This document shows positions 19,275 through 62,331 of a stretch of 64,000 bases of DNA, in pieces. The position numbers and the translations under genes are program-made. Within the stretch, counting starts at the first letter, position 1. Every line of letters begins with the position of its first letter. The notes beneath the pieces were generated by a model. It searched no databases. It had not been told where the DNA came from and was given only the letters and a program-made list of their open reading frames with translations. Source of the stretch: a phage; sequence record PZ295659.1; one strand, written 5' to 3'.

Positions 19275-20375
19275 TTACGCTGTGAAGATTTTATCCCACA
19301 TCGCAACAACTGCATCTCGATTATACTTCTTCCATACTGCTTCAGCACGTTTAACTCGAGCTTCGTATGTGTCAGTGAATTCTAATACAGCTTTTGTGTA
19401 AAGCGCAACTACTTCTTTCTTAGGAGTAGAGGAATCAATTTCTACACGCACAGTATCTGGGTCGTATTCGAATGTCGCATGAGGATAATCCTTAAAAACT
19501 AACTGGATTACGGGGACACCTTTAGAGATGGCTTCAATAGAACTATTCTCTACTGTACCTGTGTCAGGACACGTATTAATAAGTGCTTTAGCTGTTTTAA
19601 GGCGTTCCATGATTTCACTGTGTGGAGCATCAATAATAACAGGATATTTAGCTGGTGGAGCCCATTTACTAGGACAGTATCCTACACCATTTTCGCCTAG
19701 TGCTTTAATCGCTTCAAGAGCAACATCGGTACGACGCATTTTAGTGTCATAACGTTGTGCACTAATAATCAGATCAGTCGCCGGAAGAACTTCAGGTTTC
19801 TCATTCAAACAAATAACCGGATAATCTTCGGCTTCAAACAACGGATTTGCTCGCCAATAATCATAATCAATTTTGTCAGTCAGAGCTGAAGTCATATGGC
19901 AATATTTACGTTCAAATTCACGGAAGGCTTTAGTAGGAGCATAACTCTTACCACCATTCTTATGAATTTGAATAGTCTGGTCCCAAATTTGAACAATGCC
20001 ACGAGATACCGGTTCAAATGGTGTTGCCATAAAATTCTTATGAACTTTAGAGAGACCTGCGTCTTTAATTGCCTGAACGGTTAGTTTAGTCGGTTCCATA
20101 GTAACAACAAAATCGTATTCATTGATGCCGGCTAGTTCAACAATCTTACGAGCCATAGTATAACTCATACCTAGACTGAATTTAGTCAGATGACCAACAG
20201 GATGGTGTGTAACTTTCCAGTCACCAAACGTGTCATTATCAAAGCCGATATAATCAATATCAGCACCGATGGACACAAGATATTTCAACACATTTAAATG
20301 TACTGCTTCAAGGCCACCTTGTACACGGTCAGGATTAAATGGGACTGCACGAGATGGGATAAACATAACTTTCAT
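19275..20375 (-). CDS. GT-B fold glycosyltransferase (candidate DNA sugar transferase)
   Basis: 366 aa; N-terminal MKVMFIPSRA... Rossmann-like start and C-terminal ENSSIEAISKGVPVI resembling the GT4 E-x7-E motif; sits between rIIA.1 and gp39. Confidence 0.65.
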   Translation of the reverse strand: MKVMFIPSRAVPFNPDRVQGGLEAVHLNVLKYLVSIGADIDYIGFDNDTFGDWKVTHHPVGHLTKFSLGMSYTMARKIVELAGINEYDFVVTMEPTKLTVQAIKDAGLSKVHKNFMATPFEPVSRGIVQIWDQTIQIHKNGGKSYAPTKAFREFERKYCHMTSALTDKIDYDYWRANPLFEAEDYPVICLNEKPEVLPATDLIISAQRYDTKMRRTDVALEAIKALGENGVGYCPSKWAPPAKYPVIIDAPHSEIMERLKTAKALINTCPDTGTVENSSIEAISKGVPVIQLVFKDYPHATFEYDPDTVRVEIDSSTPKKEVVALYTKAVLEFTDTYEARVKRAEAVWKKYNRDAVVAMWDKIFTA

Positions 20376-20401: not shown

Positions 20402-20419
20402 AAGCTCCAGAAGGAGCTT
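20402..20419 (-). terminator. Hairpin AAGCUCC-UUCU-GGAGCUU overlapping the gp39 stop
   Basis: 7-bp inverted repeat aagctcc/ggagctt with 4-nt loop. Confidence 0.4.
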
Positions 20420-22235
20420 AGGACATCCATTCTTTACGAAGTTCTGAATCATCACCCAACAACATTTCAAAGAGTTCTTTCCAATTTTCAGGAAGTTTAA
20501 CTACGTCGTACACAGGGTTCTGAATCATTTCACGATATTCTGACTTTTCAAGGGAGCCTAATCCCTTGATGTATCGAATACTATGCTTAGGAAGTGTATC
20601 TTTAGCTTCTTCATACTCAGCTACAGTATAAAACCATTTTTGAGTTTTGCCAATTTGTGCAATAATTACAGGCGTTTTAACAAAGCGAATACGTCCTTGT
20701 TCAAACAATTCAGGCCAATTACTAAAGAAAGCAAGCAAAGCTGGATAAATACTTCCAAGACCGTCATGATCGGCATCGGTCATAATTGCAATATTACGAT
20801 AGTTTGTATTCTCTGCCTTTTCACCAAGAATAAGACCTGTGATAGCACAGATATCAAAGAGCTCTTTATTCTTCATCATATCAGCATATGACATACCCCA
20901 GCTATTCATCACCTTACCACGTAATGGGAATCCGCCGTGTAGTTCACGGTCACGAACATCAATGAGATAACCAATTGCCGAATCACCTTCTGTTAAAAAC
21001 AATGTCGTATCTGCATCTTTACCACATTGGTTAGCTTTAATATGCTTATGAACCTTAGCTTTAGTTGCCTTTTTAGCTGCTTTAGTTTCTGCAGCTTTTT
21101 CTGCCGCCAATTTACGAGCTAATGCTGCTTCAACAATAGGCATAATCAAGGCTTCGTTTTTAAGAAGTGCCTGAGCAATTTTCTTAGCATCTAATTGGAT
21201 ATGATTACGAATATCACCATACGTTGACGTTAAACGTTCTTTAGTCTGAGAATCAAAACGCATGTTGCTCATGTCTCTAATAAACATCAACATTGTGAGA
21301 CATTCTTTAACACGAGCTTTAGTGACTTCAATACCCTTATATTTCTTTTTAATACCTGGCAAAAGATGTTCGCAGATATCATCCATTACACATTCAACAT
21401 GATGACCACCATTTTTAGTATGGATGTTATTCACATAAGTTAAATGACGGAAGCCATCTGGTGATGTTGTGAATGCTATAGAGACTTTATCATTTTCTTG
21501 AATGATGTTATCTTCGCCAAATTGTTTAGCAAATCGTTTAAAATTACCATCAACCTTTTTACCGTTAAATGTGAACTTGATATCAGGATAAACGACTGCC
21601 AATGTTTGAAGTCGGTCTAAAGTAATATCTAAATAAATTTGAGATAAATTATGTTCTTCAAATGAAGAGAAATCAGGAGTGAAGATTACTTTAGTGCCTT
21701 TACCTTTAGATTTCTTAGAAGACCATGATTTGTTTTCCATTCCGTTTGAACAGTTAACAGTGATTTCATTTTCGCCATCTGATGTGATGCCTGTAAACAA
21801 CGTAGAGAAGATATTAGTTAAACTACTCCCGACGCCGTTCATACCACCAGTCTTGCGTTCAGAGTCATCACCAAAGTTACCACCAGCCTTTGGAATAGTC
21901 CAGGCTGCTACAGGACCTGGAATCTGTTCACCATTTTGGTCGGTGACCATTGCTTGAGGAATACCACGTCCGTTATCTTCCACTGAGACTTGATTATTTT
22001 TAATTTGCACATCAATTTTATTTGCAAACTTAAACGATGTACGAATAGCTTCATCAACCGAGTTGTCAATAATCTCATCGATTAATTTAACCAGACCAGG
22101 AACATATTCAACTTGTTGATATTTACCAAACAAAAAACGCTCGTGGGCTTCTTTAGCCGAAGAACCAATATACATACCACTTCGTTTCTTAATATGTTCT
22201 ACATCTGACAGTACCTTAATTTCATTTTTAATCAT
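20418..22235 (-). CDS. 39: DNA topoisomerase II large subunit gp39, uninterrupted GyrB-like form
   Basis: 605 aa continuous ORF MIKNEIKVLSDVEHIKKRSGMYIGS... covering the ATPase and Toprim regions. Confidence 0.9.
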   Translation of the reverse strand: MIKNEIKVLSDVEHIKKRSGMYIGSSAKEAHERFLFGKYQQVEYVPGLVKLIDEIIDNSVDEAIRTSFKFANKIDVQIKNNQVSVEDNGRGIPQAMVTDQNGEQIPGPVAAWTIPKAGGNFGDDSERKTGGMNGVGSSLTNIFSTLFTGITSDGENEITVNCSNGMENKSWSSKKSKGKGTKVIFTPDFSSFEEHNLSQIYLDITLDRLQTLAVVYPDIKFTFNGKKVDGNFKRFAKQFGEDNIIQENDKVSIAFTTSPDGFRHLTYVNNIHTKNGGHHVECVMDDICEHLLPGIKKKYKGIEVTKARVKECLTMLMFIRDMSNMRFDSQTKERLTSTYGDIRNHIQLDAKKIAQALLKNEALIMPIVEAALARKLAAEKAAETKAAKKATKAKVHKHIKANQCGKDADTTLFLTEGDSAIGYLIDVRDRELHGGFPLRGKVMNSWGMSYADMMKNKELFDICAITGLILGEKAENTNYRNIAIMTDADHDGLGSIYPALLAFFSNWPELFEQGRIRFVKTPVIIAQIGKTQKWFYTVAEYEEAKDTLPKHSIRYIKGLGSLEKSEYREMIQNPVYDVVKLPENWKELFEMLLGDDSELRKEWMS

Positions 22236-39120: not shown

Positions 39121-39669
39121 TTAACGAGCCCATTTGATAATTTCTGTAATCAAATTATTACGTTCGCTTGCATTAAATCCTATAACTTTGTTAGCACCAT
39201 CATGATTAAGTAATTGATACGTTTGGATTTCGTTATGAATTGCAAACTCTTCAAAATATGAAATGACTGTATTAAAACCGAACGAAGACAAAGTAATAAG
39301 GTCGTCTTCAAAACTTTCAGTCATTTCGTTACGTGTTAAAATAATTGTGAACACATCATGGTTTTGGCAAAGACGAACATAATCCTGTTCATAAACGTCA
39401 AGAACCGAGTCCGCATCTTGTCGAATACGTCCATAAACCCAGTTACTAATATATCCACGGTCTAACAGATAAATCTTAGTAGGGTCTAAATAATTCAACA
39501 TCGTTTCGAAACAGCCAACTTCATTTCGAGACTTAACATCGAAACGTCCATCAACTGTTCGTTTAGGGAAATCAATCTTTACATATCTTTCGCTAATTTC
39601 CATTATGTCATTAATGAAAGTTGTTTTACCAGCATTATCCGGGCCATCTACTAAAATAATTTTAGCCAT
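39121..39669 (-). CDS. P-loop NTPase, nucleoside/nucleotide kinase-like
   Basis: 182 aa; Walker A ILVDGPDNAGKTTF; no direct T4 counterpart at this position. Confidence 0.5.
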   Translation of the reverse strand: MAKIILVDGPDNAGKTTFINDIMEISERYVKIDFPKRTVDGRFDVKSRNEVGCFETMLNYLDPTKIYLLDRGYISNWVYGRIRQDADSVLDVYEQDYVRLCQNHDVFTIILTRNEMTESFEDDLITLSSFGFNTVISYFEEFAIHNEIQTYQLLNHDGANKVIGFNASERNNLITEIIKWAR

Positions 39670-39670
39670 T

Positions 39671-40570
39671 TTATTCCTCGATTACGACATCTTCATATTT
39701 AGGTATATTATACGGCGAAGAAATTAAAGCATTAAAGTAGATGAACTCACCAAGACCTGGATGGAATACTTCTTCAGGATTTTCGAAATATTGAATCTTC
39801 GGTCGTCCTTTAAGAATTTGATAGTACTCAGTTTTAGTTGGGTTAAAAATTCGAATCAGCGCTTCTTCAGGATACTTATTTCTGTCGAAGCTATTATTTG
39901 GATCGGTTATATAAAGCGGTTGGCCTAATTGAATTGCACATTCAACCACTTGTTCAAAACGATAACACGGGTCACTAATTCGAAATGGATGAAAAATACC
40001 ATCTAGATGAATAGGAGCCAAATCACCTACAAGACGCTGCATGATGGAAGGACGTATAACTTTCTGCGTTACGATAATCTTATTACCATCTGCACCTGCG
40101 TTAACCAGCACTTCTTTTTGACGTTCATTCAACACAGTAGTTTGAAGTGAACGATTAACCGACAACATGTCGGTTTTTAAGAATTCGTCAATATAAAAAC
40201 GTGGTTTATTAGGGTCCGCAGTGATATTGAAATTGAATTCCACATCAAAAGCGCCGTCATATCCAGTGATATCTGTGATTAGAAAATCACAATCATAATA
40301 AGCAATTAATGAATCAACCACAAATTCATTTTCAGACCAGAAATATTTACGAGTGTTATATGCGTTATCTTTATACCATAATGGAACAAACTTAAATTCT
40401 GGGAAAAGACGTTCACATTCTTTAATATCAGATGCATTACGTGGATATGTAATCACATCACCCGGATTAGCACGGTGCAAATGAAGTTGGAAGTTGCCAT
40501 CCTTAAGGATAGCATACTGTCCAGTTTCATAAGACCGCATACTCAAGATAGGTACGCGGAAAATAGCCAT
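39671..40570 (-). CDS. Protein of unknown function at the beta-glucosyltransferase locus; candidate DNA sugar transferase
   Basis: 299 aa between uvsX and gp42; no recognisable similarity to remembered T4 beta-gt; no motifs identified. Confidence 0.35.
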   Translation of the reverse strand: MAIFRVPILSMRSYETGQYAILKDGNFQLHLHRANPGDVITYPRNASDIKECERLFPEFKFVPLWYKDNAYNTRKYFWSENEFVVDSLIAYYDCDFLITDITGYDGAFDVEFNFNITADPNKPRFYIDEFLKTDMLSVNRSLQTTVLNERQKEVLVNAGADGNKIIVTQKVIRPSIMQRLVGDLAPIHLDGIFHPFRISDPCYRFEQVVECAIQLGQPLYITDPNNSFDRNKYPEEALIRIFNPTKTEYYQILKGRPKIQYFENPEEVFHPGLGEFIYFNALISSPYNIPKYEDVVIEE

Positions 40571-41286
40571 TAGTCAAGGAATCCTTTAACATAATCAAAA
40601 TCACGTTCAAACACATGGGCACTTACCATGGTATGAGTATAATCACCAACTTCTACACCACATTCGTTAGCGATATAATGAAGTAATTTTCCTTGGAGAT
40701 AAAAATCCAACTGCATAACAACAGCACAGTTCTGAGAACGCATATGACAGTGGGTATAAAGCTTACCATCACGAATATAATAAGTCACTGAGTCAGTACA
40801 TGGATATTCAAGTGTTTCGTCCGAATCAAGCAAAGCCTGATCTGAACTTTCTAGAATTTGGAACACAACTCTTCGGGAGTTAGGCTTCTCTTTAAGTTCT
40901 TTTAGAAGAGCTGGTAATTGAGCCGCAATGCGAGGACCGTAGAAAGTGTTGAAGTTTGCAGGCAAAGCGTCTGATTTAGGTTTAGAAATAAATTTAGCGA
41001 CATTAGGATATGCCTTAAATGCTTCTTCTGCATCAGTACCACCAGAAATCATAAACTTCCAGAAGTCTTCGGCATATTCATAAGAGATGCGATTAATACG
41101 TGGATCGGTCATTTTGAATGATGAAGGGGTATCAACAACTACTGTCATAGACCCAATTTCATTACAACGTCCAATACGAGAATCAGTAACGAACTGTGGA
41201 TTTTCTAAAATTTCACGATTAACAGCTTTAAATGCGGATTGAAAATCTGCGGCTTTAATATATTTCATTGTGTTATGTTTTCCCAT
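40570..41286 (-). CDS. 42: dCMP hydroxymethylase (thymidylate synthase family)
   Basis: 238 aa; PCTDSVTYYIRDGKLYTHCHMRSQN aligns with the T4 gp42 active-site region CTNTVQYLIRD; SD gaggt; N-terminus diverged from my recollection of T4. Confidence 0.65.
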   Translation of the reverse strand: MGKHNTMKYIKAADFQSAFKAVNREILENPQFVTDSRIGRCNEIGSMTVVVDTPSSFKMTDPRINRISYEYAEDFWKFMISGGTDAEEAFKAYPNVAKFISKPKSDALPANFNTFYGPRIAAQLPALLKELKEKPNSRRVVFQILESSDQALLDSDETLEYPCTDSVTYYIRDGKLYTHCHMRSQNCAVVMQLDFYLQGKLLHYIANECGVEVGDYTHTMVSAHVFERDFDYVKGFLD

Positions 41287-41304: not shown

Positions 41305-41328
41305 ATTATATACTCAATTCATAAAGCT
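41305..41328 (-). promoter_or_regulatory. Candidate MotA-dependent middle promoter for gene 42
   Basis: Minus-strand AGCTTTA (one mismatch to the TGCTTTA MotA box) 11 nt upstream of TATAAT. Confidence 0.35.
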
Positions 41329-41406
41329 TATTTGAATTTCTTAGCAATGTTGATATAACGTAAAGCTTCAGCATCGATACTTCCAAGAACACTATGAAGA
41401 AATGCA

Positions 41407-41568
41407 TCAGCGTAGTATTCTAGTTGAACAGGTTTCTTTAATCACTTTAGCCGCTTTAGTTTCAAACAGGCCCATAAGGGCCTTTTTAAGAATTTGTTCG
41501 TTGCTGTTAATTTTCGTAGTCAAAATCTCTTCATTAAGTTGGTGGTTAAAAGTTTTTCTAGAAATCAT
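41407..41568 (-). CDS. Possible small protein (53 aa) coupled by ATGA to the Cys-rich gene
   Basis: ATG overlaps the upstream TGA; region also contains a GGCCC/GGGCC hairpin, so coding status is uncertain. Confidence 0.3.
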   Translation of the reverse strand: MISRKTFNHQLNEEILTTKINSNEQILKKALMGLFETKAAKVIKETCSTRILR

Positions 41569-42725
41569 TCCGGGTACCTCAAAGCGTCGTCAGAGTTAGT
41601 TATATCAATAATAGATATAGAGTTTTCTGCTAACCCATTTTTAGATAACTGACGTTTATAATATCTTTCACAATATGTACACGTCGTCCCGCAGATTTCA
41701 TTAGCACAATCGAAATCTGGATGTCTGAACCACCTTTTTTCTAAAAAGCCATCTAACAAAGAGGTTTCAATATTTACCGTATGTGAAAACTCGGTCTCAT
41801 TTTCAAGAGTGAAAATAGTCTCTAAAGGCTTCCACAATTCCAACAAATTACCTTCAAATTTTTCAGAAGCATAAGCTTCAAGAACTTTCAAAATGTAGTC
41901 TGTGCTACCTGTACGTCCTGAAACTTTGAATTGAGTGATACCAATATCATTATAAAGTTTCAAATCTTGAGGACGAACAAAACGAGTTCTCAACCAGTTA
42001 AATGGGTCTGTATCACGAGCTTTAATACAGTGTTGCATTGGATAGCCATTTAAGGATTTGGCATCATCTACTGTAACGTCGGTGCTATGGAAAATATAGC
42101 AAGAGTCACGATAGCTACAATGTGTTGTATACCCTTTACCAGCATTAGAACAGAACTCATTTACAAGAACTTCAAATATTATATTGTTCTTATTGCAAAA
42201 CTCTGCTGCACGCTTCAGGAAAGAAACTGAACGGTTCTTATGAATTCCACAGCAGACCTTTTTGATATTATATTGGTCATGCAAGTATTTGATTTGAGTT
42301 ACAGCATCGACATGTAGAATTGTTGAAACTTCAATCTCAATGTCTTTATTAACTTCACGAACAATTTCCATAACAACAGGGTTAGCGATAGTAATACGCC
42401 ATACGCCTATTGACCAAAGATACTGAACATAATCCTGAATAGCTTTCTTCTTCCACTCAACTAGTTCTCTTTTTGAACCAGGATTTATCGTGTTGAGTGT
42501 ATAGTTAAAGCAAATACCTAATTCGTTACAACGTTTAACATAATCTTCTAACATCTTTTTGTCAACGTCAGGAAGCCTAAAATCAGGTCTGGCTGCTACA
42601 AAAGCCATTTCTCTTGTAGAGCCGTATACTTCATTTATCAAGCTATTAGGATAAGTTTTATTGAGCTCTACGATTTTATCAAGAAGAGCTAAATCAAAAT
42701 TCGTTCCGATTTTAAAAGTATTCAT
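41565..42725 (-). CDS. Cys-rich protein of unknown function, possible metal or Fe-S binding, in the sugar-nucleotide module
   Basis: 386 aa; C-terminal CANEICGTTCTYC (C-x4-C-x3-C-x2-C) plus further Cys pairs; weak resemblance to U32-type Cys-rich segments not confirmed. Confidence 0.5.
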   Translation of the reverse strand: MNTFKIGTNFDLALLDKIVELNKTYPNSLINEVYGSTREMAFVAARPDFRLPDVDKKMLEDYVKRCNELGICFNYTLNTINPGSKRELVEWKKKAIQDYVQYLWSIGVWRITIANPVVMEIVREVNKDIEIEVSTILHVDAVTQIKYLHDQYNIKKVCCGIHKNRSVSFLKRAAEFCNKNNIIFEVLVNEFCSNAGKGYTTHCSYRDSCYIFHSTDVTVDDAKSLNGYPMQHCIKARDTDPFNWLRTRFVRPQDLKLYNDIGITQFKVSGRTGSTDYILKVLEAYASEKFEGNLLELWKPLETIFTLENETEFSHTVNIETSLLDGFLEKRWFRHPDFDCANEICGTTCTYCERYYKRQLSKNGLAENSISIIDITNSDDALRYPE

Positions 42726-42779: not shown

Positions 42780-43181
42780 TTATAGATTCGGTTTATATGA
42801 TTTAAATGTTTCGAATTCGCCTTTATTCATAAGAGCTTTGAATTCGTCAGGACGCATAGCTTTGTCGTCGATAATCCAATCATATACTGGTTTATGTGTT
42901 AGCAAATTATGGTACTTCAAGCCAATGTTTGCCAAGTTCTGAATCAGACTTGGGAGAATGTCAATTGCTATACGACCAGGACCTACTGACTTCATACCGC
43001 GAGCAGTGTAAAGCGTTATTGTATGCCCTGCATCATACAGGGCATTAATGGCAGACACCATTTCGACGTCTGGTTTGAAGTTCACGTAATCACGATTGTT
43101 ATTCCACTCGGTTATACAATCATCGACATCAAAACAAAGATTAAGCATGTTTTCTACACGGTGCATTAGATTCGTTCCCAT
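42780..43181 (-). CDS. HAD-superfamily phosphatase (small, capless)
   Basis: 133 aa; motif I-like FDVDDCIT, then LYTAR and KP...WIIDDKA; an alternative ATG at 43166 overlaps the upstream stop as TAATG. Confidence 0.55.
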   Translation of the reverse strand: MGTNLMHRVENMLNLCFDVDDCITEWNNNRDYVNFKPDVEMVSAINALYDAGHTITLYTARGMKSVGPGRIAIDILPSLIQNLANIGLKYHNLLTHKPVYDWIIDDKAMRPDEFKALMNKGEFETFKSYKPNL

Positions 43182-44851
43182 TGATGAGTGATATCGCCAC
43201 CGATTGGACGATAGGAAACACCAGTTTCTTTATCAGTTAGTACCCATTTACCAGGATTTTTTGTAATCAGAGTAGCCGTTACAGGTTCTGCTACGTCATA
43301 ACTAATAGAGCCGTCTTGAAGTACACGGCCCATGTTACGTAATTGCTTAGTCAGAAGTTCCATACCTTTATAATATGCGGCTACCGCTTTAAGTGGATTA
43401 TTCTTGAAATAACCACCTAATGCAATCCAGATAATTGCTACAGCCAAATGATGATACTCGTTAAACGAACTCATCTTTCCATATTTGTAAACTAATGGAT
43501 TGATGTTAATAGTCACATTACAAGTTGTTTCATCAATAGTAAACTGACCCCAGGTCGGATTAGCGTTGAATTCATCATAACCTGAAACAGCGTAAAGCAC
43601 TTTAGCTTCATCATACAATTTTGGCCCGTAAATCTTGGTTTCACCAAAATATCCACGAGGGTCGATAAACTTGACTTCACCATTATCAGTAATCATAGTA
43701 TTACTGAAGTTCGGGTCACCATGAATAACAGAGTACTGTCCCTGAGAACGGTTATGATAACGAATAAGGTGTTCTAAAGCTTGTTTCAACATTGGCTTCA
43801 GACGTCCAATCTTAGTGTAGTTCACATGTGTGATTTTACCAAATGAATCAATCAATGGTTGAATACTTTCACAACGATCAATAACTTTCGTATAGAATTC
43901 TTTAGTGAAATCACGACGAACAGTTTCAGGACTTACAAAATAAGTGTCTGTGCTGAATTTCAGTGCATCTAAAATTGCATCAACAATTTGTGGACGAGCA
44001 AGACTCGATTTGGATTTAATATATTCAAATGCCGGCTTACCTTTAATGCGTTCCATTTCAAAGTTATTTTCATTAACAGAAACTAACTGAGGAACTGAAT
44101 CTGATTTCACTTTAAGATACCATGAAATCTCATCTTTCTGAAGAGCTCGACCCTGTTCGGTTAATGCGAATTTAGTTACAGTTTCTTCACCAATTTCAAC
44201 TGCATTAAAACTACGATTAAGTTCACGAACTTCATGAGCTTTTTCAAGTTTAGGCATATCACCTAAATCAATTAGATTCATAAGCTCTGATTTATTGAAT
44301 GCGCTGCCGTAAAGGAATTCTACGAAATCACGCCCTTTGCAGTATTCATGAATTTCCTCATCAGTAGAACCCATATAGAATTCCCAGTCTTTGAACTGAT
44401 AAATTCCTACAACATTACCACCTGTTGAACCTACGTTAGTGATATTTTCACCGTCGAAATTATATCGACATTCGTCACCCTTAACATAGATTGCGTTAAC
44501 ATTCCAAGACCATGAACCAAAATCAGGAATAATATCGCACCAGTTAACAATTACATTATGGCTGTCTAAATCTTTGTGTAATTTAGCAAGAGCATAAGCA
44601 GAACCATACGCTTCATCAACTGTACGAATAGTCACATTGAACCCTTCTTGCTCACAATAAGCTCGAACAGTTTCAGCAAATTTTGAATGAACTACTACAA
44701 TAATTTCATCTGCGCCAAGGTCAGAATAAATTGTATACAAATTGCTCAGAATAGTGTCTTGTTTATAGTTAACAAGCACCTTAGGAATATGATGCGTTAT
44801 TGGATACAAACGAGTTGCCAGTCCAGCACCAAGAATAACAGCTTTTTTCAT
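43166..44851 (-). CDS. Bifunctional sugar-1-phosphate nucleotidyltransferase / APH-fold sugar kinase fusion
   Basis: 561 aa; N-terminal AVILGAGLATRLYP (RmlA-type G-x-G-T-R-L), C-terminal VIHGDPNFSNTMI...FIDPRG (Brenner and D-x-x-G motifs of choline/aminoglycoside kinase fold). Confidence 0.65.
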   Translation of the reverse strand: MKKAVILGAGLATRLYPITHHIPKVLVNYKQDTILSNLYTIYSDLGADEIIVVVHSKFAETVRAYCEQEGFNVTIRTVDEAYGSAYALAKLHKDLDSHNVIVNWCDIIPDFGSWSWNVNAIYVKGDECRYNFDGENITNVGSTGGNVVGIYQFKDWEFYMGSTDEEIHEYCKGRDFVEFLYGSAFNKSELMNLIDLGDMPKLEKAHEVRELNRSFNAVEIGEETVTKFALTEQGRALQKDEISWYLKVKSDSVPQLVSVNENNFEMERIKGKPAFEYIKSKSSLARPQIVDAILDALKFSTDTYFVSPETVRRDFTKEFYTKVIDRCESIQPLIDSFGKITHVNYTKIGRLKPMLKQALEHLIRYHNRSQGQYSVIHGDPNFSNTMITDNGEVKFIDPRGYFGETKIYGPKLYDEAKVLYAVSGYDEFNANPTWGQFTIDETTCNVTININPLVYKYGKMSSFNEYHHLAVAIIWIALGGYFKNNPLKAVAAYYKGMELLTKQLRNMGRVLQDGSISYDVAEPVTATLITKNPGKWVLTDKETGVSYRPIGGDITHQWERI

Positions 44852-44892: not shown

Positions 44893-45036
44893 CTAGTTAA
44901 AGCATTCATACTTTGCTTGTAGTCCAATCATAATCCATCCGATTACAAGTGTTGGAATCATTACTGGAGCCGTTAAGCTCCAGTAGATAGTCATGACAAG
45001 CATCAATAGTAAAAGTCCTATTGTTATTGCTTTCAT
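44893..45036 (-). CDS. Small hydrophobic peptide (47 aa) coupled by ATGA to the isomerase gene
   Basis: MKAITIGLLLLMLVMTIYWSLTAPVMIPTLVIGWIMIGL...; ATG overlaps the TGA of the SIS gene. Confidence 0.4.
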   Translation of the reverse strand: MKAITIGLLLLMLVMTIYWSLTAPVMIPTLVIGWIMIGLQAKYECFN

Positions 45037-45668
45037 TGTTCGCCTCGTAACATGGCACCTAGTGCACCGCCAGGGTGGAACTTAAGGAAGTCATTAGAGG
45101 TAAATCCACGTTCAGACGAAAGGTTGATAGCAAACGTATCGATAAGCGCTAACAACAATGTAGTGGACATGGTCGGAGCCAGAGAATTCTCATCAACCTC
45201 TACTGCGATGCCTGTACAGAACGTATAATCAAAAAGAGCTTCATATTCTTGTGGAATGTCTGGGTTACAATGCAACAGAATCTGTTTGACGTTCGGACGA
45301 ATCATTTTAAGATGCTTAGCCACGCCTATCATTTCTTCAGTTTTACCAGAACGACTAATATGAATCAACACATCATTAGGCGCAATGAATCCTGCATCAC
45401 CGTGAGAATAATGCCCGGTGTTCAAGTACATACTAGGGATACCGAGTGAAGCAAATGTTTCAGAAGCTTTAGTTGCAATATTAGCATTCTTACCAACACC
45501 TGTAATAATTACTCGGCTTTCATAATTACTAAGCCCTGGGCGTCGAAGAGTTTCTAGAATAGCATTATAACGAGCAGGGTTTTGACTAATTACTTTGGCC
45601 ATAGCGGCCAAAGAAGAAGCTTGTTTTATGATTGCGTCAATAGCGATAGTAATAGGAGTAGTTTTCAT
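45033..45668 (-). CDS. SIS-domain sugar-phosphate isomerase, KdsD/GutQ-like (arabinose-5-phosphate isomerase type) without CBS domains
   Basis: 211 aa; ITGVGKNANIATKASETFASLGIPSMYLNTGHYSHGDAGFIAPNDVLIHISRSGKT parallels the KdsD SIS core GMGKSGHIG...HGDLG...ISNSGES. Confidence 0.7.
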   Translation of the reverse strand: MKTTPITIAIDAIIKQASSLAAMAKVISQNPARYNAILETLRRPGLSNYESRVIITGVGKNANIATKASETFASLGIPSMYLNTGHYSHGDAGFIAPNDVLIHISRSGKTEEMIGVAKHLKMIRPNVKQILLHCNPDIPQEYEALFDYTFCTGIAVEVDENSLAPTMSTTLLLALIDTFAINLSSERGFTSNDFLKFHPGGALGAMLRGEQ

Positions 45669-45708: not shown

Positions 45709-48420
45709 TCAAAAATCGAACATATCGAAAAGAGATGCTTTCTTCTCGTAATCGAGTTTCGCTGCTGATGTGAATCCTTCAAGTGGTTTAATAAATGTCT
45801 TCTCAAGGAGAACAGTGTAGTCCATCCAATGAAGTACGTCGTCTTTAATTAAATCTGTGATTTCAGTACCAGAAGGCCATGCGATACATTTATCACCGAA
45901 TGGGTTTCCTTCACGTAAAGGCAGAACATATACTTTTTCACCTTCTACAACTTGCGGTGCATCGATATTACCTTTGATGGCCCGGTTATATGTCAGAATT
46001 CCACGAATATGGAACGGACATTTAGGACCAGGGAATCCACCTACGTCATATTTAGCGATGTTATTCGCAGAAGATACCGACGCGATGCTAATATAATTCA
46101 ATTGACGGAATTCTTTTTCAAACTCTTTAAAATATTCTTGTAATGATTCTTCACCTTCTTGAAGCATACGACGAATACATTCTTTAAGAGCTTTCTGTAC
46201 GGCTTTAGGAGTCGAAGATTTCTGCGTCTCTAGACCCATGATTTTGAGTTTAGGCTCAGCGTAACGAGTACCTTCCATATCCCACACGTTTAATGCATAA
46301 CGTTTCTTACCAGTCCAGAATCCACCAATACCTTTAGAACCAAGTGGAGGCCCAGCGATAGCTTCTCGGTCCATGAACATTAAGTGTTGTTTATTGTTCA
46401 TGTATTCACACATTTCACGGAAACCTCTATCAATAGCTGGTTCCATACGTTCACGTGCAAACTTATCTAAGAAGTCTACCCAGTGGTTGGTATCACGGAA
46501 TTTAGATTCACCAACCTTATCGATAATTTTATCAGCAGATACGTAAATAGAGTCTGTATCACCATAAAGAACGAAAGCTTCACCTTCTGTACCACAAACT
46601 TCGTTCAGATATTCATTAACTTTACGTTCAATCCACTGTAAAGCCATTTGCCCAAATGTTGTGATTGCAGTAGCATTACGCAAATCATAATAACGGAACC
46701 AAACGTTGCCAAGTGCACCATAAAGTGAGTTGATAAGCAATTTACGGTTAATTTGAGCAGTCATACCTGCAACTTCGGTACGTTGAGCTCTAAACAACAT
46801 TTCATTAAGAGATTTAGCAGACAACTTTTTAATCTTTTCTTTAATCTCATCACTGAAGTCGAAACGATAATCAACATCTAATGGTTCGTCAACAGAAAGA
46901 TTAGGATTATGCAATGCCTCTTTAATTATTTCACCGTTACGTTGAGCTGCAAGCATGTAACCTTTATGTTCTTTACGTTGATTAAAGACCTTAGTGATTT
47001 CAGTTGGAACTACACCATCACGGTCTTTATAATACATCATGCCGTTAGGAGAGCAACTGTACACATCTGAAGGACGTTCAGCAACAGCGTTAATATAATC
47101 ATGCAATGGAGCTACTTTAAACGTTCCTGCTATTGTTTCCGGGCTAATATTCACTTGGCGAATAATACTTGGATACAGAGATGTAAGGTCGAAACTCATT
47201 ACATATTTGTATCGATTTGGAATAGGTTCCTTAACAAAAGCACCAGGATAAGGTTGAACCGGGTGAGAACGACCTTGTGGAATCACCTTGTTCTGCTCTT
47301 TAAGGCTATTAAAAATAATAGCATCCCATGTTTTAATTGGGCTAAACACAGATTGAATCTGTATCTTAGCATAATAACCCATGTCCAAACTCAAGTTGAT
47401 GAACTGACGCTTAGCATCAATTTGCAATACACGATACACGTCGATAATGTTATAAGAAATATATCGTTGGTGATTGCTTTCACGAAGCTTAGAAATAGGG
47501 CCGTCATATTTCAGTTTACCAACGTTCAATTCAAATTCTGAAATGTAATCCAGAGAATATGACGGCTGATTGGTAAAAGAGAATTTTTTGTAAAGGTCAA
47601 TGTAATCAAGAACAGAGATACCGAACAATGTAATGATTTCACGAGAACCATACATGTTTTCGATAACTTTAACACGAGTTTTACGATGTGGTGATAAACG
47701 TTTCGCAGTAGATTCGCCAAAAATATTCTTGATTCGGTTATACACATATGGAATATCAAATGACTCAACGTTCCATCCAGTCAAAATGACAGGAGTTTTC
47801 TGTTGCCAGAAGTTGAGATATTCCATCAACAATTCTTTTTCGTTATCGAACGGCATATAAATGATTTTATCGATAATTTCGGATGGAACTTCATCACCGC
47901 CTTGTTCTTGAAGCTTGGCCGCAATTTCGATAGACCATTCTTCTACATTACCATATGGAGAATTCAATAGATCAAATACGTAGAACCTGTCGTCAATTGA
48001 GTCATAATGGGTGATAGCATCAATCGGATGTTTTGCTTGTGACGGCTCAGGGAACCCATCCGGGGATGTTACTTCGATGTCGAAGTTAGCCACACGAATT
48101 TTTGTATGGTCGTATTTGATTTCATAGTTATAAGTGTCAGACAAATACGCCAATTTGAAATCGTCCATGCCAAGTGCTTCAAGTCCGATATCTTCCATGC
48201 GTTTAATCCATTGGGAGGCATCACGCATATTGGCGAACAACTTACGAGTACACGGCTTACCATAGATATCAAAATATTTCGTGGCCTGACTTTCAGGACA
48301 ATGTGCAAACAATGATGGTTTATACTCTACTTCACGAGTACGTTCACGGCCGTTAGAATCGATGTAACGTTCAAAAATTGAATCACCAATCTGTTCAACC
48401 GTTAAGTAAAATTCTTTCAT
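45709..48420 (-). CDS. 43: DNA polymerase gp43 (family B), RB69-type
   Basis: 903 aa; MKEFYLTVEQIGDSIFERYIDSNGRERTREVEYKPSLF... matches my recollection of RB69 gp43; exonuclease and polymerase motifs (YGDTDS) present. Confidence 0.95.
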   Translation of the reverse strand: MKEFYLTVEQIGDSIFERYIDSNGRERTREVEYKPSLFAHCPESQATKYFDIYGKPCTRKLFANMRDASQWIKRMEDIGLEALGMDDFKLAYLSDTYNYEIKYDHTKIRVANFDIEVTSPDGFPEPSQAKHPIDAITHYDSIDDRFYVFDLLNSPYGNVEEWSIEIAAKLQEQGGDEVPSEIIDKIIYMPFDNEKELLMEYLNFWQQKTPVILTGWNVESFDIPYVYNRIKNIFGESTAKRLSPHRKTRVKVIENMYGSREIITLFGISVLDYIDLYKKFSFTNQPSYSLDYISEFELNVGKLKYDGPISKLRESNHQRYISYNIIDVYRVLQIDAKRQFINLSLDMGYYAKIQIQSVFSPIKTWDAIIFNSLKEQNKVIPQGRSHPVQPYPGAFVKEPIPNRYKYVMSFDLTSLYPSIIRQVNISPETIAGTFKVAPLHDYINAVAERPSDVYSCSPNGMMYYKDRDGVVPTEITKVFNQRKEHKGYMLAAQRNGEIIKEALHNPNLSVDEPLDVDYRFDFSDEIKEKIKKLSAKSLNEMLFRAQRTEVAGMTAQINRKLLINSLYGALGNVWFRYYDLRNATAITTFGQMALQWIERKVNEYLNEVCGTEGEAFVLYGDTDSIYVSADKIIDKVGESKFRDTNHWVDFLDKFARERMEPAIDRGFREMCEYMNNKQHLMFMDREAIAGPPLGSKGIGGFWTGKKRYALNVWDMEGTRYAEPKLKIMGLETQKSSTPKAVQKALKECIRRMLQEGEESLQEYFKEFEKEFRQLNYISIASVSSANNIAKYDVGGFPGPKCPFHIRGILTYNRAIKGNIDAPQVVEGEKVYVLPLREGNPFGDKCIAWPSGTEITDLIKDDVLHWMDYTVLLEKTFIKPLEGFTSAAKLDYEKKASLFDMFDF

Positions 48421-60046: not shown

Positions 60047-60517
60047 TTAATCATGTTTCCACACCCCATCGGTATTTGACCAAAGTCGCTGATTATCTGA
60101 TCCTCGCCACAGTTTTTTGGTCGGAAGATTTTTCTCATACTTCCCATCAATAATAACATCAACATATTTAAGCATTTCTAGTTGTTTAATATCTTCAAAC
60201 TTATATCCTGTCCACAACCAAATGCTTTTATTGGGATAAAGATTTTTTACTGTTTGAACAATGCAATGAACAACATCTCGGTTATCAGGATAGAGAGGGT
60301 CTCCTCCAGTTATAGTTAATCCTTCTATATAATCATTATTCAAACATTCAATTAATTGTTCTAGCGTTTCACCAGTGAATGGAACGCCATTTCTAGCATT
60401 CCATGTTGATTTATTATAACACCCTTCGCATTTATGCAAACAACCGGTAACGAAAAGAACGACCCTGCAACCAGGGCCATTCACAAAATCACAGGGATAA
60501 AATCTATCATAATTCAT
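60047..60517 (-). CDS. nrdG: Anaerobic ribonucleotide reductase activating enzyme NrdG (radical SAM)
   Basis: 156 aa; cysteine cluster CLHKCEGC; ATG overlaps the nrdD stop as ATGA. Confidence 0.9.
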   Translation of the reverse strand: MNYDRFYPCDFVNGPGCRVVLFVTGCLHKCEGCYNKSTWNARNGVPFTGETLEQLIECLNNDYIEGLTITGGDPLYPDNRDVVHCIVQTVKNLYPNKSIWLWTGYKFEDIKQLEMLKYVDVIIDGKYEKNLPTKKLWRGSDNQRLWSNTDGVWKHD

Positions 60518-62331
60518 TGGTGTTTAACCCTATGCATGATTTCTTTATTTTTGCCGAGATTAAATCCACGTTCGTTCGGATTTCCAAGATAACCGCATGT
60601 TCTTCTTATGGTGTTCATCTTTTTAGGATCAGTTTCTCCACAAATAGAACAAACAAATCCGTTTTCAGTAGGAGTCATTTCATGGGTACTTCCACACGTA
60701 AAACATTTATCTACTGGCATATTAACACCAAAATAATCTAAATGTTGCGCAGCATAATCCCATACAGCCTCAAGACCTTTTAGGTTATTTTTCATATCAG
60801 GAAGTTCAACATAAGAAATGTGACCGCCAGTCGCAATGAAATGATATGGGGCTTCGCGAGAAATCTTTTCAAACGGAGTAATATTTTCTTCTACTGAAAC
60901 ATGGAAACTATTAGTGTACCATCCTTTATCAGTAACATCTTTTACACTTCCATATTTTTCAGTATCGAGTTTACAGAAGCGATAGCACAGGTTTTCAGCA
61001 GGAGTAGAATACAAGCTAAAAGCAAAACCGGTTCTTTCAGTCCACTGCTTAAGACGAGCATTCATTTTAGTTAAAATTTCTTGTCCAATATCACGACCGA
61101 CAAGAATATTCAATTCGTGAATACCAATGTATCCTAGGGACACTGAACTTCTACCGTTTTTAAATAACTCAATTATGTCGTCGTCAGGTTTAAGACGAAC
61201 CCCGAATGCACCTTCTTGGTAAAGAATAGGAGCAACAGTCGCTTTAACTCCTTTTAAGGAACTAATTCTACACATCAAAGCTTCAAAACATAAATCCATT
61301 CGTTCATTGAACAATTCGGTAAATTTCTGTTCATTGAACTGTGTTCCAATATAAGAATCTAACGCAATACGAGGAAGATTCAGTGTTACAACACCAAGAT
61401 TATTACGTCCATCAAGAATTTCATTACCAGTCGAATCTTTCCATACACTCAAGAAACTACGACAACCCATTGGAGAAACAGGAATAGATGAACCGGTGAT
61501 AGCTTTATTATTCTTAACTGAAATAATATCAGGATACATTCTTTTGCTTGCACACTCTAGAGCAAGCTGCTTAATATCATAGTTCGGGTCGTCTTTATAA
61601 AGATTGACACCCTCTTCAACGAACATAACAAGTTTAGGGAAAATAGGAGTTATTCCATCACGACCAAGGCCTTTAATACGGTTTTTAAGAATTGCCTTCT
61701 GAATAATTCGTTCAGTCCAGTCAGTTCCAGTACCAAATGTAATTGTTACAAAAGGCGTTTGCCCGTTTGAACTAAAGAGAGTATTTACTTCGTATTCATA
61801 CGCTTGGAATGCATCGTATACGTCTTTTTCTGTTTTAGATTGGGCATAATTCAACGCATCAGCGATTTGCCATTTTTCTGCATCCTCAATATGTTTTGCA
61901 TAGGTGCGTTTAACATAAGGAGAAAGTACTTTATCTACATTCGCAAAAGTCGTTCCGCCATATTGATGGGAAGCAACCTGTGCAGTAATTTGTGCCATAA
62001 TTGCAGTAGCAACGCCGATTGATTTAGGAGTTTCAATCTGTGCATTACCTAGCTTAAATCCGTTTTCAAGCATTCCTTTTAAATCTACTAAACAGCAATT
62101 AGTAAATGGAAGAGCAGGGGAATAATCAATATCATGGAAATGGATAATTCCGCTTTCATGTGCTTTCATAATAAAAGACGGGACCATATTTTTGGCAATG
62201 TGCTTAGACACAATACCAGCCATAAGGTCCCGTTGAGTTGGAAAAACACGAGAATCTTTATTAGCATTCTCGTTCAAAAGATCTTTATTAGTTTTATGAA
62301 TTAATCCTTCAATTTCTTTTTCAATTTTCAT
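60514..62331 (-). CDS. nrdD: Anaerobic ribonucleoside-triphosphate reductase NrdD, uninterrupted
   Basis: 605 aa continuous; C-terminal zinc-ribbon cysteines CFTCGS...CSICG and glycyl-radical region RRTCGYLG. Confidence 0.95.
   Translation of the reverse strand: MKIEKEIEGLIHKTNKDLLNENANKDSRVFPTQRDLMAGIVSKHIAKNMVPSFIMKAHESGIIHFHDIDYSPALPFTNCCLVDLKGMLENGFKLGNAQIETPKSIGVATAIMAQITAQVASHQYGGTTFANVDKVLSPYVKRTYAKHIEDAEKWQIADALNYAQSKTEKDVYDAFQAYEYEVNTLFSSNGQTPFVTITFGTGTDWTERIIQKAILKNRIKGLGRDGITPIFPKLVMFVEEGVNLYKDDPNYDIKQLALECASKRMYPDIISVKNNKAITGSSIPVSPMGCRSFLSVWKDSTGNEILDGRNNLGVVTLNLPRIALDSYIGTQFNEQKFTELFNERMDLCFEALMCRISSLKGVKATVAPILYQEGAFGVRLKPDDDIIELFKNGRSSVSLGYIGIHELNILVGRDIGQEILTKMNARLKQWTERTGFAFSLYSTPAENLCYRFCKLDTEKYGSVKDVTDKGWYTNSFHVSVEENITPFEKISREAPYHFIATGGHISYVELPDMKNNLKGLEAVWDYAAQHLDYFGVNMPVDKCFTCGSTHEMTPTENGFVCSICGETDPKKMNTIRRTCGYLGNPNERGFNLGKNKEIMHRVKHQ

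Follow-up and report, generated by a model that had tools for sequence, protein, structure and literature searches.

What does a cysteine-rich protein of 386 amino acids contribute to a phage gene cluster for the synthesis of DNA with arabinosylated 5-hydroxycytosine, which already encodes a hydroxylase for the base? The sole demonstrated route to phage 5-hydroxycytosine uses molecular oxygen, yet the phages considered here replicate in gut bacteria. They break down dCTP and have a ribonucleotide reductase of the anaerobic type, and an O2-independent hydroxylase would close the gap. The window, a stretch of 64,000 nucleotides of phage DNA (PZ295659.1), is from a Mosigvirus, and the following genes on its minus strand bear on the question:

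39121..39669, minus strand: thymidylate-kinase-like P-loop protein, homologue of RB69 gp45
39671..40570, minus strand: DNA arabinosyltransferase 1, homologue of RB69 gp46:47
40570..41286, minus strand: thymidylate-synthase-like, flavin/O2-dependent 5-hydroxy-dCMP synthase, homologue of RB69 gp48 (99% identity)
41328..41568, minus strand: homologue of gp49 (RB69 ORF049c), its start overlapping the stop of the U32 gene (ATGA)
41565..42725, minus strand: predicted U32-family Fe-S protein, homologue of RB69 gp50 / ORF050c (99.2% identity to RB69)
42780..43181, minus strand: HAD phosphatase, gp51 / AfhF-like
43166..44851, minus strand: bifunctional sugar kinase / nucleotidyltransferase, gp52:53 / AfhE-like
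45033..45668, minus strand: arabinose-5-phosphate isomerase with a SIS domain, gp55
60047..62331, minus strand: anaerobic ribonucleotide reductase NrdD (60514..62331) and its activase NrdG (60047..60517), given for context only

The open reading frame at 41565..42725 is genuine and ATG-initiated. The original prediction had made it the last gene of its module; the same-strand cluster in fact runs on downstream through gp49, the 5-hydroxy-dCMP synthase, the DNA glycosyltransferase and the kinase-like gene. The ATGA coupling to a small downstream frame that had also been proposed is real, as the stop codon of the U32 gene and the start codon of a 53-aa ORF (41407..41568) share bases in GGAATGATT. 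This ORF is the gp49 homologue, shortened to 53 aa by a 1-nt insertion near 41435. We considered whether gp49 might be a degenerate AroQ chorismate mutase and rejected the idea: the CM_2 profile finds no match in gp49 of the window or of RB69, and phages PM2 and TG1 carry a gp49-like gene plus a separate chorismate mutase. gp49 is a separate small-protein family. A promoter and terminator scan of the cluster gave results no better than shuffled sequence. With nrdD and nrdG the phage is equipped for dNTP synthesis without oxygen.

The gp50 homologue is a divergent U32-family TIM-barrel protein. What had been noticed as a faint resemblance to U32 enzymes is borne out by a Pfam Peptidase_U32 (PF01136) match of 42.4 bits over residues 94-286 (cut-off 22.4, E 6.3e-11) and by the closest fold in the PDB. 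Profile comparison and structure searches of the kind that had been suggested agree: hhalign places RlhA closest among the E. coli U32 paralogues (E 7.7e-6 over 205 columns; TrhP, E 2e-3; UbiU, E 7e-3), and the AF2 model (pLDDT 93.4, pTM 0.91) retrieves with Foldseek the U32 TIM-barrel protein Mk0906 (5D88) as its top PDB match. The NCBIfam UbiU model gives the phage protein only 19 bits where its cut-off is 440, PDB sequence searches with the single protein or the family profile returned nothing useful, and a profile of the phage clade recovers 1,703 matches in 1.84 billion proteins, the mainstream U32 family not being among them. E185 aligns with RlhA E161, an acidic residue upstream of the first cysteine, and this position is Glu in 92 of 121 distant cluster representatives; the RlhA E161A mutant is nearly dead.

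The cysteine richness and the C-terminal C-x4-C-x3-C-x2-C cluster singled out by the original prediction are both present and are conserved among homologues. Thirteen residues (3.4%) are cysteine, versus 1.3% in the 38 long minus-strand ORFs of the window, and the motif CANEICGTTCTYC spans residues 340-352. C158, C192, C203, C209, C233, C340, C345, C349 and C352 are invariant in 69 homologues at 47-87% identity, and this invariance shows that the pattern exceeds chance. They include two candidate ligand sites:

42027..42152, minus strand: candidate ligand site 1, C192, C203, C209 and C233 (NEFC-x10-C-x5-C-x23-C), from alignment, hhalign and conservation
41670..41708, minus strand: candidate ligand site 2, C340-x4-C345-x3-C349-x2-C352 (CxxE[IL]CGx[ST]CxYC), from conservation

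In the first site, C192 (or C203), C209 and C233 align with the canonical [4Fe-4S] cysteines of UbiU, RlhA and TrhP. Three positions of the canonical motif Cx6Cx15Cx3-4C are aligned in this way and the CxxxC partner, the fourth cysteine, is absent; a family-specific invariant cysteine of the phage clade may be the ligand that replaces it. Among the 121 distant representatives, C192 is kept in 119 and C203 and C233 in 121 each, while position 209 is occupied by Cys in 73 and by His in 47. The second site, whose four cysteines are kept in 113-116 of the 121 and along which the model pLDDT is 95-97, probably binds a further Fe-S cluster or metal. The earlier suggestion of a metal or Fe-S site is thus well supported by conservation, including the Cys/His exchange at one putative ligand position. 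A radical SAM enzyme was also considered, as the segment CGTTCTYC (C345-x3-C349-x-Y-C352) resembles CxxxCxxC. However, this motif is C-terminal and not at the start of a partial TIM barrel, a fourth conserved cysteine (C340) is present, and there is no Radical_SAM Pfam match at E <= 0.1.

We think it rather likely that gp50 is an O2-independent, prephenate-dependent dCMP C5-hydroxylase, a backup to gp48 in this phage and the sole hydroxylase elsewhere; its substrate, product, anaerobic role and cluster number are what we infer. The protein would be a compact single-chain U32 Fe-S enzyme whose substrate, a deoxycytidine nucleotide and most likely dCMP, is hydroxylated at C5 in an O2-independent reaction. 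The oxygen would come from prephenate, which would end up as phenylpyruvate and CO2, and one or two Fe-S clusters would take off the two electrons. In this Mosigvirus, gp50 would stand in anaerobically for the adjoining gp48 hydroxylase, which requires flavin and O2, and in the anoxic gut it would keep 5-hydroxy-dCTP flowing for replication and arabinosylation. Because the Mosigviruses, including the window and RB69, are without a chorismate mutase, their prephenate would come from the host. For the clade as a whole, the chances seem to us about even that it provides a second, O2-independent route to 5-hydroxycytosine DNA, the only one in phages of strict anaerobes and a twin of the oxygen-dependent one in enteric T4-like phages. 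In full-text searches we found no paper in which the modification of phage DNA is linked to U32 proteins, prephenate or chorismate mutase.

The genes that accompany the clade in other phages are consistent with a need for prephenate. In 51 of the 68 non-Mosigvirus records with a phage U32 gene, every one of the 51 from a T4-like phage, this gene adjoins that of an AroQ chorismate mutase. In unrelated viral contigs its neighbor is a 107-aa chorismate mutase, a DAHPS-CM fusion or a DAHP synthase; chorismate mutase and/or DAHP synthase supply prephenate. In 32 viral loci that are not T4-like the U32 gene sits within modules of kinase, gp46:47-like glycosyltransferase, SIS, AfhE and HAD genes (glycosyltransferase in 23 of the 32, AfhE in 16), the gp46:47 glycosyltransferase family being the commonest neighbor of the clade in unrelated phages. 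Genes for dCTPase/dUTPase-like proteins or dCMP deaminase are often nearby, and a six-frame HMM search found a thymidylate-synthase-family gene within 10 kb of the U32 gene in only one of these 32 loci. Two neighbors, of 402 aa (L006) and 296 aa (L018), were tested as further gp46:47-like glycosyltransferases, and this was not supported.

The distribution of the U32 gene tracks host oxygen use: the T4-like phages of aerobes (Acinetobacter, Pseudomonas) have only the O2/flavin-dependent thymidylate-synthase-like enzyme, and contigs associated with anaerobes have U32 alone. The thymidylate-synthase-like gene occurs in 57 records from Acinetobacter phages and 20 from Rhizobium phages. Neither host figures in the ten most frequent names of the U32 search, the tenth of which has three records, so at most three records from each can carry U32; Maestro and Pseudomonas phage PspYZU05, inspected directly, have none. 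Both hydroxylase genes are found in most enterobacterial and Shewanella phages. The 14 U32 matches in genome bins are mostly from strict anaerobes, with the reservation that host assignments of metagenomic bins can be wrong, and none has a thymidylate synthase gene within the approximately 10 kb examined on each side, the range searched in the metagenomic phages. The gene is not mandatory in enteric hosts, because E. coli is also a host of the Dhakaviruses, JS98 for example, which lack it.

A U32 hydroxylase could act in the same pathway on another substrate or at another level: on cytosine in DNA after replication, on dCTP or dC, or on a uracil nucleotide, with 5-hydroxy-dUMP as the product. 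The targets of RlhA and TrhP are polymers, and in jumbo-phage-like contigs the U32 gene directly follows that of dCMP deaminase, which produces dUMP. However, the 386-aa phage protein is without a nucleic-acid-binding extension of the RlhA/TrhP type, and its neighbors are nucleotide-level enzymes (kinase, dCTPase-like, NT5C, dNK); we consider such a substrate unlikely. The published annotations, "sugar or heterocycle reductase" and "putative enzyme involved in UDP-arabinose biosynthesis", point instead to the sugar branch, the former label being a fold-based guess for gp50. The placement of the gene between the HAD phosphatase and the remaining cluster, and the frequent co-occurrence of SIS and AfhE genes with U32, would fit a sugar role. 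Against this, the isomerase, AfhE and AfhF reportedly account for UDP-arabinofuranose synthesis, no sugar-acting U32 protein is known, and one would still have to account for the linkage to chorismate mutase and DAHP synthase. Acinetobacter phages without U32 make the same arabinosyl-5-hydroxycytosine, and the clade also occurs in clusters without arabinose genes, in loci that have neither SIS nor AfhE but only kinase and glycosyltransferase genes or a UDP-galactopyranose mutase module (L019, L020, L045, L046, L051, L055 and L068). A place in the sugar branch therefore appears improbable to us. The original prediction had offered a redox step on sugar or nucleotide, or the transferase itself; the nucleotide option fits, as C5 hydroxylation of the base, whereas the sugar step and the transferase do not, the transferases being separate GT-B proteins.

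One could also assume that the protein is an RNA hydroxylase like TrhP and RlhA, with tRNA or rRNA of the host or the phage as its target, and that its position in a DNA modification cluster is incidental. T4-like phages carry tRNA genes, and the only known nucleic-acid U32 enzymes are RNA hydroxylases. Nevertheless, the linkage to DNA glycosyltransferase and nucleotide-metabolism genes recurs in very different phages, and the RNA-binding domains of RlhA and TrhP are missing from the phage protein, which makes an RNA target very unlikely. The family name and many database annotations ("peptidase", "collagenase-like protease", PHROG 5757) suggest a peptidase or collagenase, to which we give next to no credence: no catalytic mechanism has been established for the reported U32 proteases, all genetically characterized E. 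coli members are hydroxylation factors (PMC5727448; PMC10990095), and neither the conserved sets of Cys/His ligands nor a gene context of nucleotide and prephenate metabolism suits a protease.

If gp50 is a prephenate-dependent dCMP hydroxylase, a U32 hydroxylase would for the first time be known from a virus, and for the first time with a soluble deoxynucleotide as substrate; those characterized so far act on a ribosomal precursor, on tRNA or on a membrane lipid. The chorismate mutase and DAHP synthase genes of phages would then serve to supply a cofactor, and DNA with arabinosyl- or glycosyl-5-hydroxycytosine would reach many uncultured phages of anaerobes. Oxygen-dependent phenotypes would be predicted for phage-therapy candidates such as Mosigvirus and the T4-like phages of Klebsiella, Enterobacter and Serratia. 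Prephenate-dependent U32 hydroxylation had not been reconstituted in vitro by 2024 (PMC10990095), and a single-chain enzyme of 386 aa with dCMP and prephenate would offer a tractable system in which to test the mechanism.

Among known systems, the U32 "peptidase" Mk0906 of Methanopyrus kandleri (PDB 5D88) shares the TIM-barrel U32 core (Foldseek E 2.8e-7, TM 0.70 on target) at 11% identity, but consists of the barrel only, without the C-terminal region that holds the cysteine cluster of the phage protein. RB69 gp48 and DLP3 gp80 make 5-hydroxy-dCMP, the product also proposed for gp50, and gp48 is encoded two genes away in the same cluster; it has the unrelated thymidylate synthase superfamily fold and uses flavin and O2, from which the oxygen of the 5-hydroxycytosine in RB69 DNA comes (PMC13326640). 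RlhA, TrhP and UbiU/V act without O2 and require prephenate, the oxygen donor, and Fe-S clusters (PMC5727448; PMC10990095). UbiU and UbiV are the anaerobic counterparts of the flavin/O2 hydroxylases UbiI/H/F (PMC10990095); prephenate is their demonstrated oxygen donor, and the two [4Fe-4S] clusters that they hold in all are matched in number by the two candidate ligand sites on the one chain of the phage protein. They differ in that they form a heterodimer, act on a lipid and need the lipid carrier UbiT. TrhP (YegQ), which hydroxylates tRNA at U34, carries out pyrimidine C5 hydroxylation as proposed for gp50, and TrhP and the O2-dependent TrhO are parallel routes to one product, the same logic that we propose for gp50 and gp48; it differs in its RNA substrate, its C-terminal beta-barrel domain and its weak similarity to the phage protein (hhalign E 2e-3). 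RlhA (YdcP) has 653 aa with a DUF3656 domain that the 386-aa phage protein lacks, is about 21% identical to it, places the fourth motif cysteine differently, and acts on a ribosomal precursor where we propose a deoxynucleotide. Nevertheless, both have the U32 core, U32-motif cysteines and a C-terminal four-cysteine group (the essential residues of RlhA are C169, C176, C580 and C611), and RlhA forms 5-hydroxycytidine at position 2501 of 23S rRNA, the cytosine C5 hydroxylation that is also proposed for gp50.

The window is a segment of a T4-like Mosigvirus genome, and the surroundings of the U32 ORF, which encodes the Cys-rich protein gp50, share 97.5-98.9% DNA identity with PHB12, ST0 and RB69. 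The genes of the cluster are all encoded on the minus strand, between the DNA polymerase gene gp43 (45709..48420) and uvsX.

Genes of the modification cluster in the window
45033..45668, minus: SIS arabinose-5-phosphate isomerase
43166..44851, minus: nucleotidyltransferase and kinase (AfhE-like), 561 aa
42780..43181, minus: HAD phosphatase
41565..42725, minus: U32 ORF, 386 aa, 99.2% identical to RB69 ORF050c/gp50
41407..41568, minus: small ORF (gp49 homologue), 53 aa
41328-41568, minus: gp49 homologue including its out-of-frame remainder
40570..41286, minus: thymidylate synthase (TS)-like gene (gp48)
39671..40570, minus: glycosyltransferase (GT), 299 aa
39121..39669, minus: thymidylate-kinase-like gene

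The original prediction was correct on the ORF, its length, the CANEICGTTCTYC motif and the small ORF that overlaps it through ATGA, and the protein is indeed Cys-rich (3.4% versus 1.3% in the window's long ORFs). It is not the last gene of the module, as had been assumed, since the small ORF and the TS-like, GT and thymidylate-kinase-like genes continue on the minus strand. The GT (39671-40570) and AfhE-like (43166-44851) genes are intact single ORFs of 299 and 561 aa; the RB69 GenBank record (L002) splits them into ORF046c/047c and ORF052c/053c, and the intact ORFs agree with the published remark that these splits are sequencing errors. A 366-aa ORF without a Pfam match (19275-20375, minus strand), flanked by two large ORFs (16756-18969 and 20418-22235), occupies the place that published work gives for RB69 gp3, the second arabinosyltransferase of Mosigviruses; this match is by position. 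RB69 ORF049c has 79 aa; relative to RB69, one extra A in an A run near 41435 frameshifts the window homologue, leaving 53 aa, with the remainder readable out of frame to 41328. The 53-aa form is shared with PHB12; the versions in ST0 and HY126 are 47 and 40 aa long, and Bas46 retains all 79 aa. The frameshift and the shorter Mosigvirus versions suggest that gp49 can be dispensed with or is being lost, or that its homopolymer invites sequencing errors. We rejected gp49 as a chorismate mutase (CM): it forms a separate small family, and PM2 and TG1 carry both a member of it and the mutase.

Lee et al. 2026 (PMC13326640) describe mono- and di-arabinosylated 5-hydroxycytosine in RB69 DNA and attribute the synthesis of 5-hydroxy-dCMP to the TS-like gp48, a flavin-binding enzyme whose oxygen comes from O2. 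The same authors label gp50 a 'sugar or heterocycle reductase' with a fold match as the sole basis; they cite He 2026 and Mahler 2025, yet offer this fold-based guess alone. Homologues elsewhere are annotated 'peptidase' or 'putative enzyme involved in UDP-arabinose biosynthesis', and the deposited records read 'putative peptidase' for LC53 and 'hypothetical protein' for HY126.

The faint U32 likeness noted in the original prediction proved right. The Pfam Peptidase_U32 match scores 42.4 bits against a curated cut-off of 22.4, and the AlphaFold2 model built from 69 homologues (pLDDT 93.4, pTM 0.91) has the U32 protein Mk0906 (5D88) as its top solved-structure match, the other matches being generic TIM barrels. 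From 1.84 billion proteins the clade profile retrieved 1,703 cluster representatives, 485 of them at E <= 1e-30; so few matches indicate that the mainstream U32 family was not drawn in and that the clade is divergent. In a profile comparison with the four E. coli U32 proteins from the MG1655 record, RlhA was nearest (E 7.7e-6 over 205 columns), followed by TrhP (2e-3) and UbiU (7e-3). C209 and C233 align with two canonical U32 cluster cysteines, the first canonical cysteine is taken by C192 (MAFFT) or C203 (hhalign), and in the alignment an extra invariant family cysteine stands in for the absent fourth. Among 121 distant representatives, K267 and R271 never vary, C192, C203 and C233 hardly ever do, and the C-terminal four cysteines are retained in 113-116. 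At position 209, 73 of the 121 have Cys and 47 have His, a swap typical of what would be a metal ligand. This conservation pattern points to two putative four-ligand sites. The suspected Fe-S site thus gains support from ligand sets conserved across homologues, and gp50 is a real, conserved, divergent U32 enzyme with a predicted Fe-S centre.

The known chemistry of the family suggests a reaction. Formation of 5-hydroxycytidine at 23S rRNA position 2501 needs RlhA, with prephenate and Fe-S biogenesis required (PMC5727448), and UbiU/V are Fe-S proteins for O2-independent ubiquinone hydroxylation with prephenate as the oxygen donor; prephenate chemistry has been proposed as common to U32 proteins, including TrhP and RlhA, with in vitro activity not yet shown (PMC10990095). 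The family thus performs, without O2, pyrimidine C5 hydroxylation, which is the reaction the phage needs. The Discussion of Lee et al. names these RNA hydroxylation pathways without linking them to gp50 (PMC13326640).

Genes for prephenate supply occur beside U32. In Enterobacter phage Entb_45, an AroQ CM (CM_2 40.9 bits, cut-off 27) is encoded by a 79-aa ORF that begins in overlap with the stop codon of U32. By tblastn, AroQ CM occurs in 51 phage records, all T4-like and each beside U32 and TS-like genes, that is, in 51 of the 68 non-Mosigvirus records with U32. The hosts are Klebsiella, Serratia, Yersinia, Enterobacter, Edwardsiella, Erwinia, Pectobacterium, Escherichia (EcS1), Shewanella, Providencia, Morganella and Kosakonia; in Shewanella phage Thanatos, U32 and CM form a two-gene unit elsewhere in the cluster. 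The mutase has 79-97 aa in the loci inspected and 114 aa in the LC53 annotation. It is missing from Mosigviruses (the window and RB69), which would rely on host CM for prephenate, and from one Klebsiella lineage (Biddle). Six large non-T4 contigs carry a 107-aa CM immediately after U32 (CM_2 E 7.7e-15), DAHP-synthase-CM fusions lie near U32 in L050, L052-L054, L064 and L084, DAHP synthase alone directly follows U32 in L009 (NCBIfam E 2.6e-70) and L038, and CM is also present in L081 and L083. In uncultured phage contigs, DAHP synthase genes, alone or fused to CM, inside DNA-modification clusters constitute auxiliary shikimate-pathway genes.

Prephenate-supply genes at U32 loci (L numbers, loci from our scans)
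L001 7158-7397; L013 11284-11541; L015 3658-3903; L016 3825-4067; L017 3878-4171: mini AroQ CM
L050 8411-9433; L053 7302-8357; L054 8332-9387; L064 11079-12197; L009 9145-9891; L038 9384-10130: DAHP synthase or DAHP-synthase-CM fusion

The original prediction allowed for a redox step on the sugar. The family alignment, used to scan IMG/VR, picked up 52 loci, 15 of them T4-like and 32 on non-T4 contigs of up to 294 kb, where U32 identity is 39-55%; PolIII-alpha genes are present on similar contigs that came separately from other metagenome assemblies. The non-T4 modules contain P-loop kinase, gp46:47-like GT (23 of 32), SIS, AfhE-like (16 of 32) and HAD genes, and dCTPase/dUTPase-like or dCMP deaminase genes are frequent nearby. 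L019, L046, L020, L045, L051, L055 and L068 have kinase-GT-U32 alone or a UDP-galactopyranose mutase module, and no arabinose genes. U32 thus follows the pathway's base branch rather than its sugar branch, which leaves the sugar role unsupported, as is the alternative that gp50 is the transferase itself. In bacterial bins (Phocaeicola, Tannerella, Lachnospiraceae, BRC1; L089-L093 and L007) the clade belongs to a conserved three-gene unit (e.g., L093 3984-7137; L090 5872-9080) whose other members are a P-loop protein of 425-450 aa and a ~265-aa protein (motif LLGGE.MPED.NPGLE); GT is absent from the unit. A radical SAM/SPASM protein recurs near the clade (L007 12160-14360, L082, L020 5980-7011, L006 1-249); in L007 and L082 a second U32-like paralogue, highly divergent at 22% identity, comes after it.

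The TS-like enzyme and U32 differ in distribution. An HMM of phage TS-like enzymes, E. coli ThyA and Rhizobium/Agrobacterium phage homologues, run on six-frame translations, found a TS-family gene within 10 kb of U32 in 15 of 15 T4-like loci and in only one of 32 non-T4 loci, L040, whose gene (5509-6360) resembles canonical ThyA (243 bits to PF00303; the gp48 type scores 57). We found the TS-like hydroxylase in 374 phage records, 57 of them under the name Acinetobacter and 20 under Rhizobium; U32 occurs in 222, with both names outside the ten commonest, the tenth having 3 records. Acinetobacter phage Maestro and Pseudomonas phage PspYZU05, inspected directly, have the whole module, with U32 and CM absent; DLP3 likewise has neither. 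Dhakaviruses (JS98) infect E. coli without a U32 gene. The 14 U32 loci of the GTDB scan fall mostly in bins of strict anaerobes (Oscillospiraceae, Lachnospiraceae, Romboutsia, Erysipelotrichales, Gastranaerophilaceae, Tannerella, Phocaeicola, Angelakisella), a soft, bin-based host assignment, and none of the 14 has a TS gene near U32. Non-orthologous displacement with redundancy between the flavin/O2 enzyme and U32 is the simplest reading: phages of aerobes would use the former, phages of anaerobes the latter, and phages of facultative anaerobes both.

The analysis shows that gp50 belongs to the U32 family, has its fold, keeps the ligand residues and sits in recurring gene associations. From these several independent lines of comparative evidence we infer the substrate, product and oxygen independence of gp50: it is probably, if not securely, an enzyme for O2-independent, prephenate-dependent C5 hydroxylation of dCMP. 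We did not find this role in the literature available. On the T4 pattern, dCTPase would supply dCMP, which gp48 (with O2) or gp50 (with prephenate) would convert to 5-hydroxy-dCMP; kinases would raise this to the triphosphate for incorporation by the polymerase, and glycosyltransferases would finally add arabinose on the DNA. Phages of facultative anaerobes would keep two hydroxylases just as they keep an aerobic and an anaerobic ribonucleotide reductase; at 60047-62331 (minus strand) the window encodes the anaerobic enzyme, NrdD (605 aa), together with NrdG (156 aa), its radical-SAM activase. Like gp50, RlhA combines U32-motif cysteines with a C-terminal four (C572/C580/C611/C614); RlhA requires C169, C176, C580 and C611 and is almost inactive as the E161A mutant, E161 being the residue with which gp50 E185 aligns.
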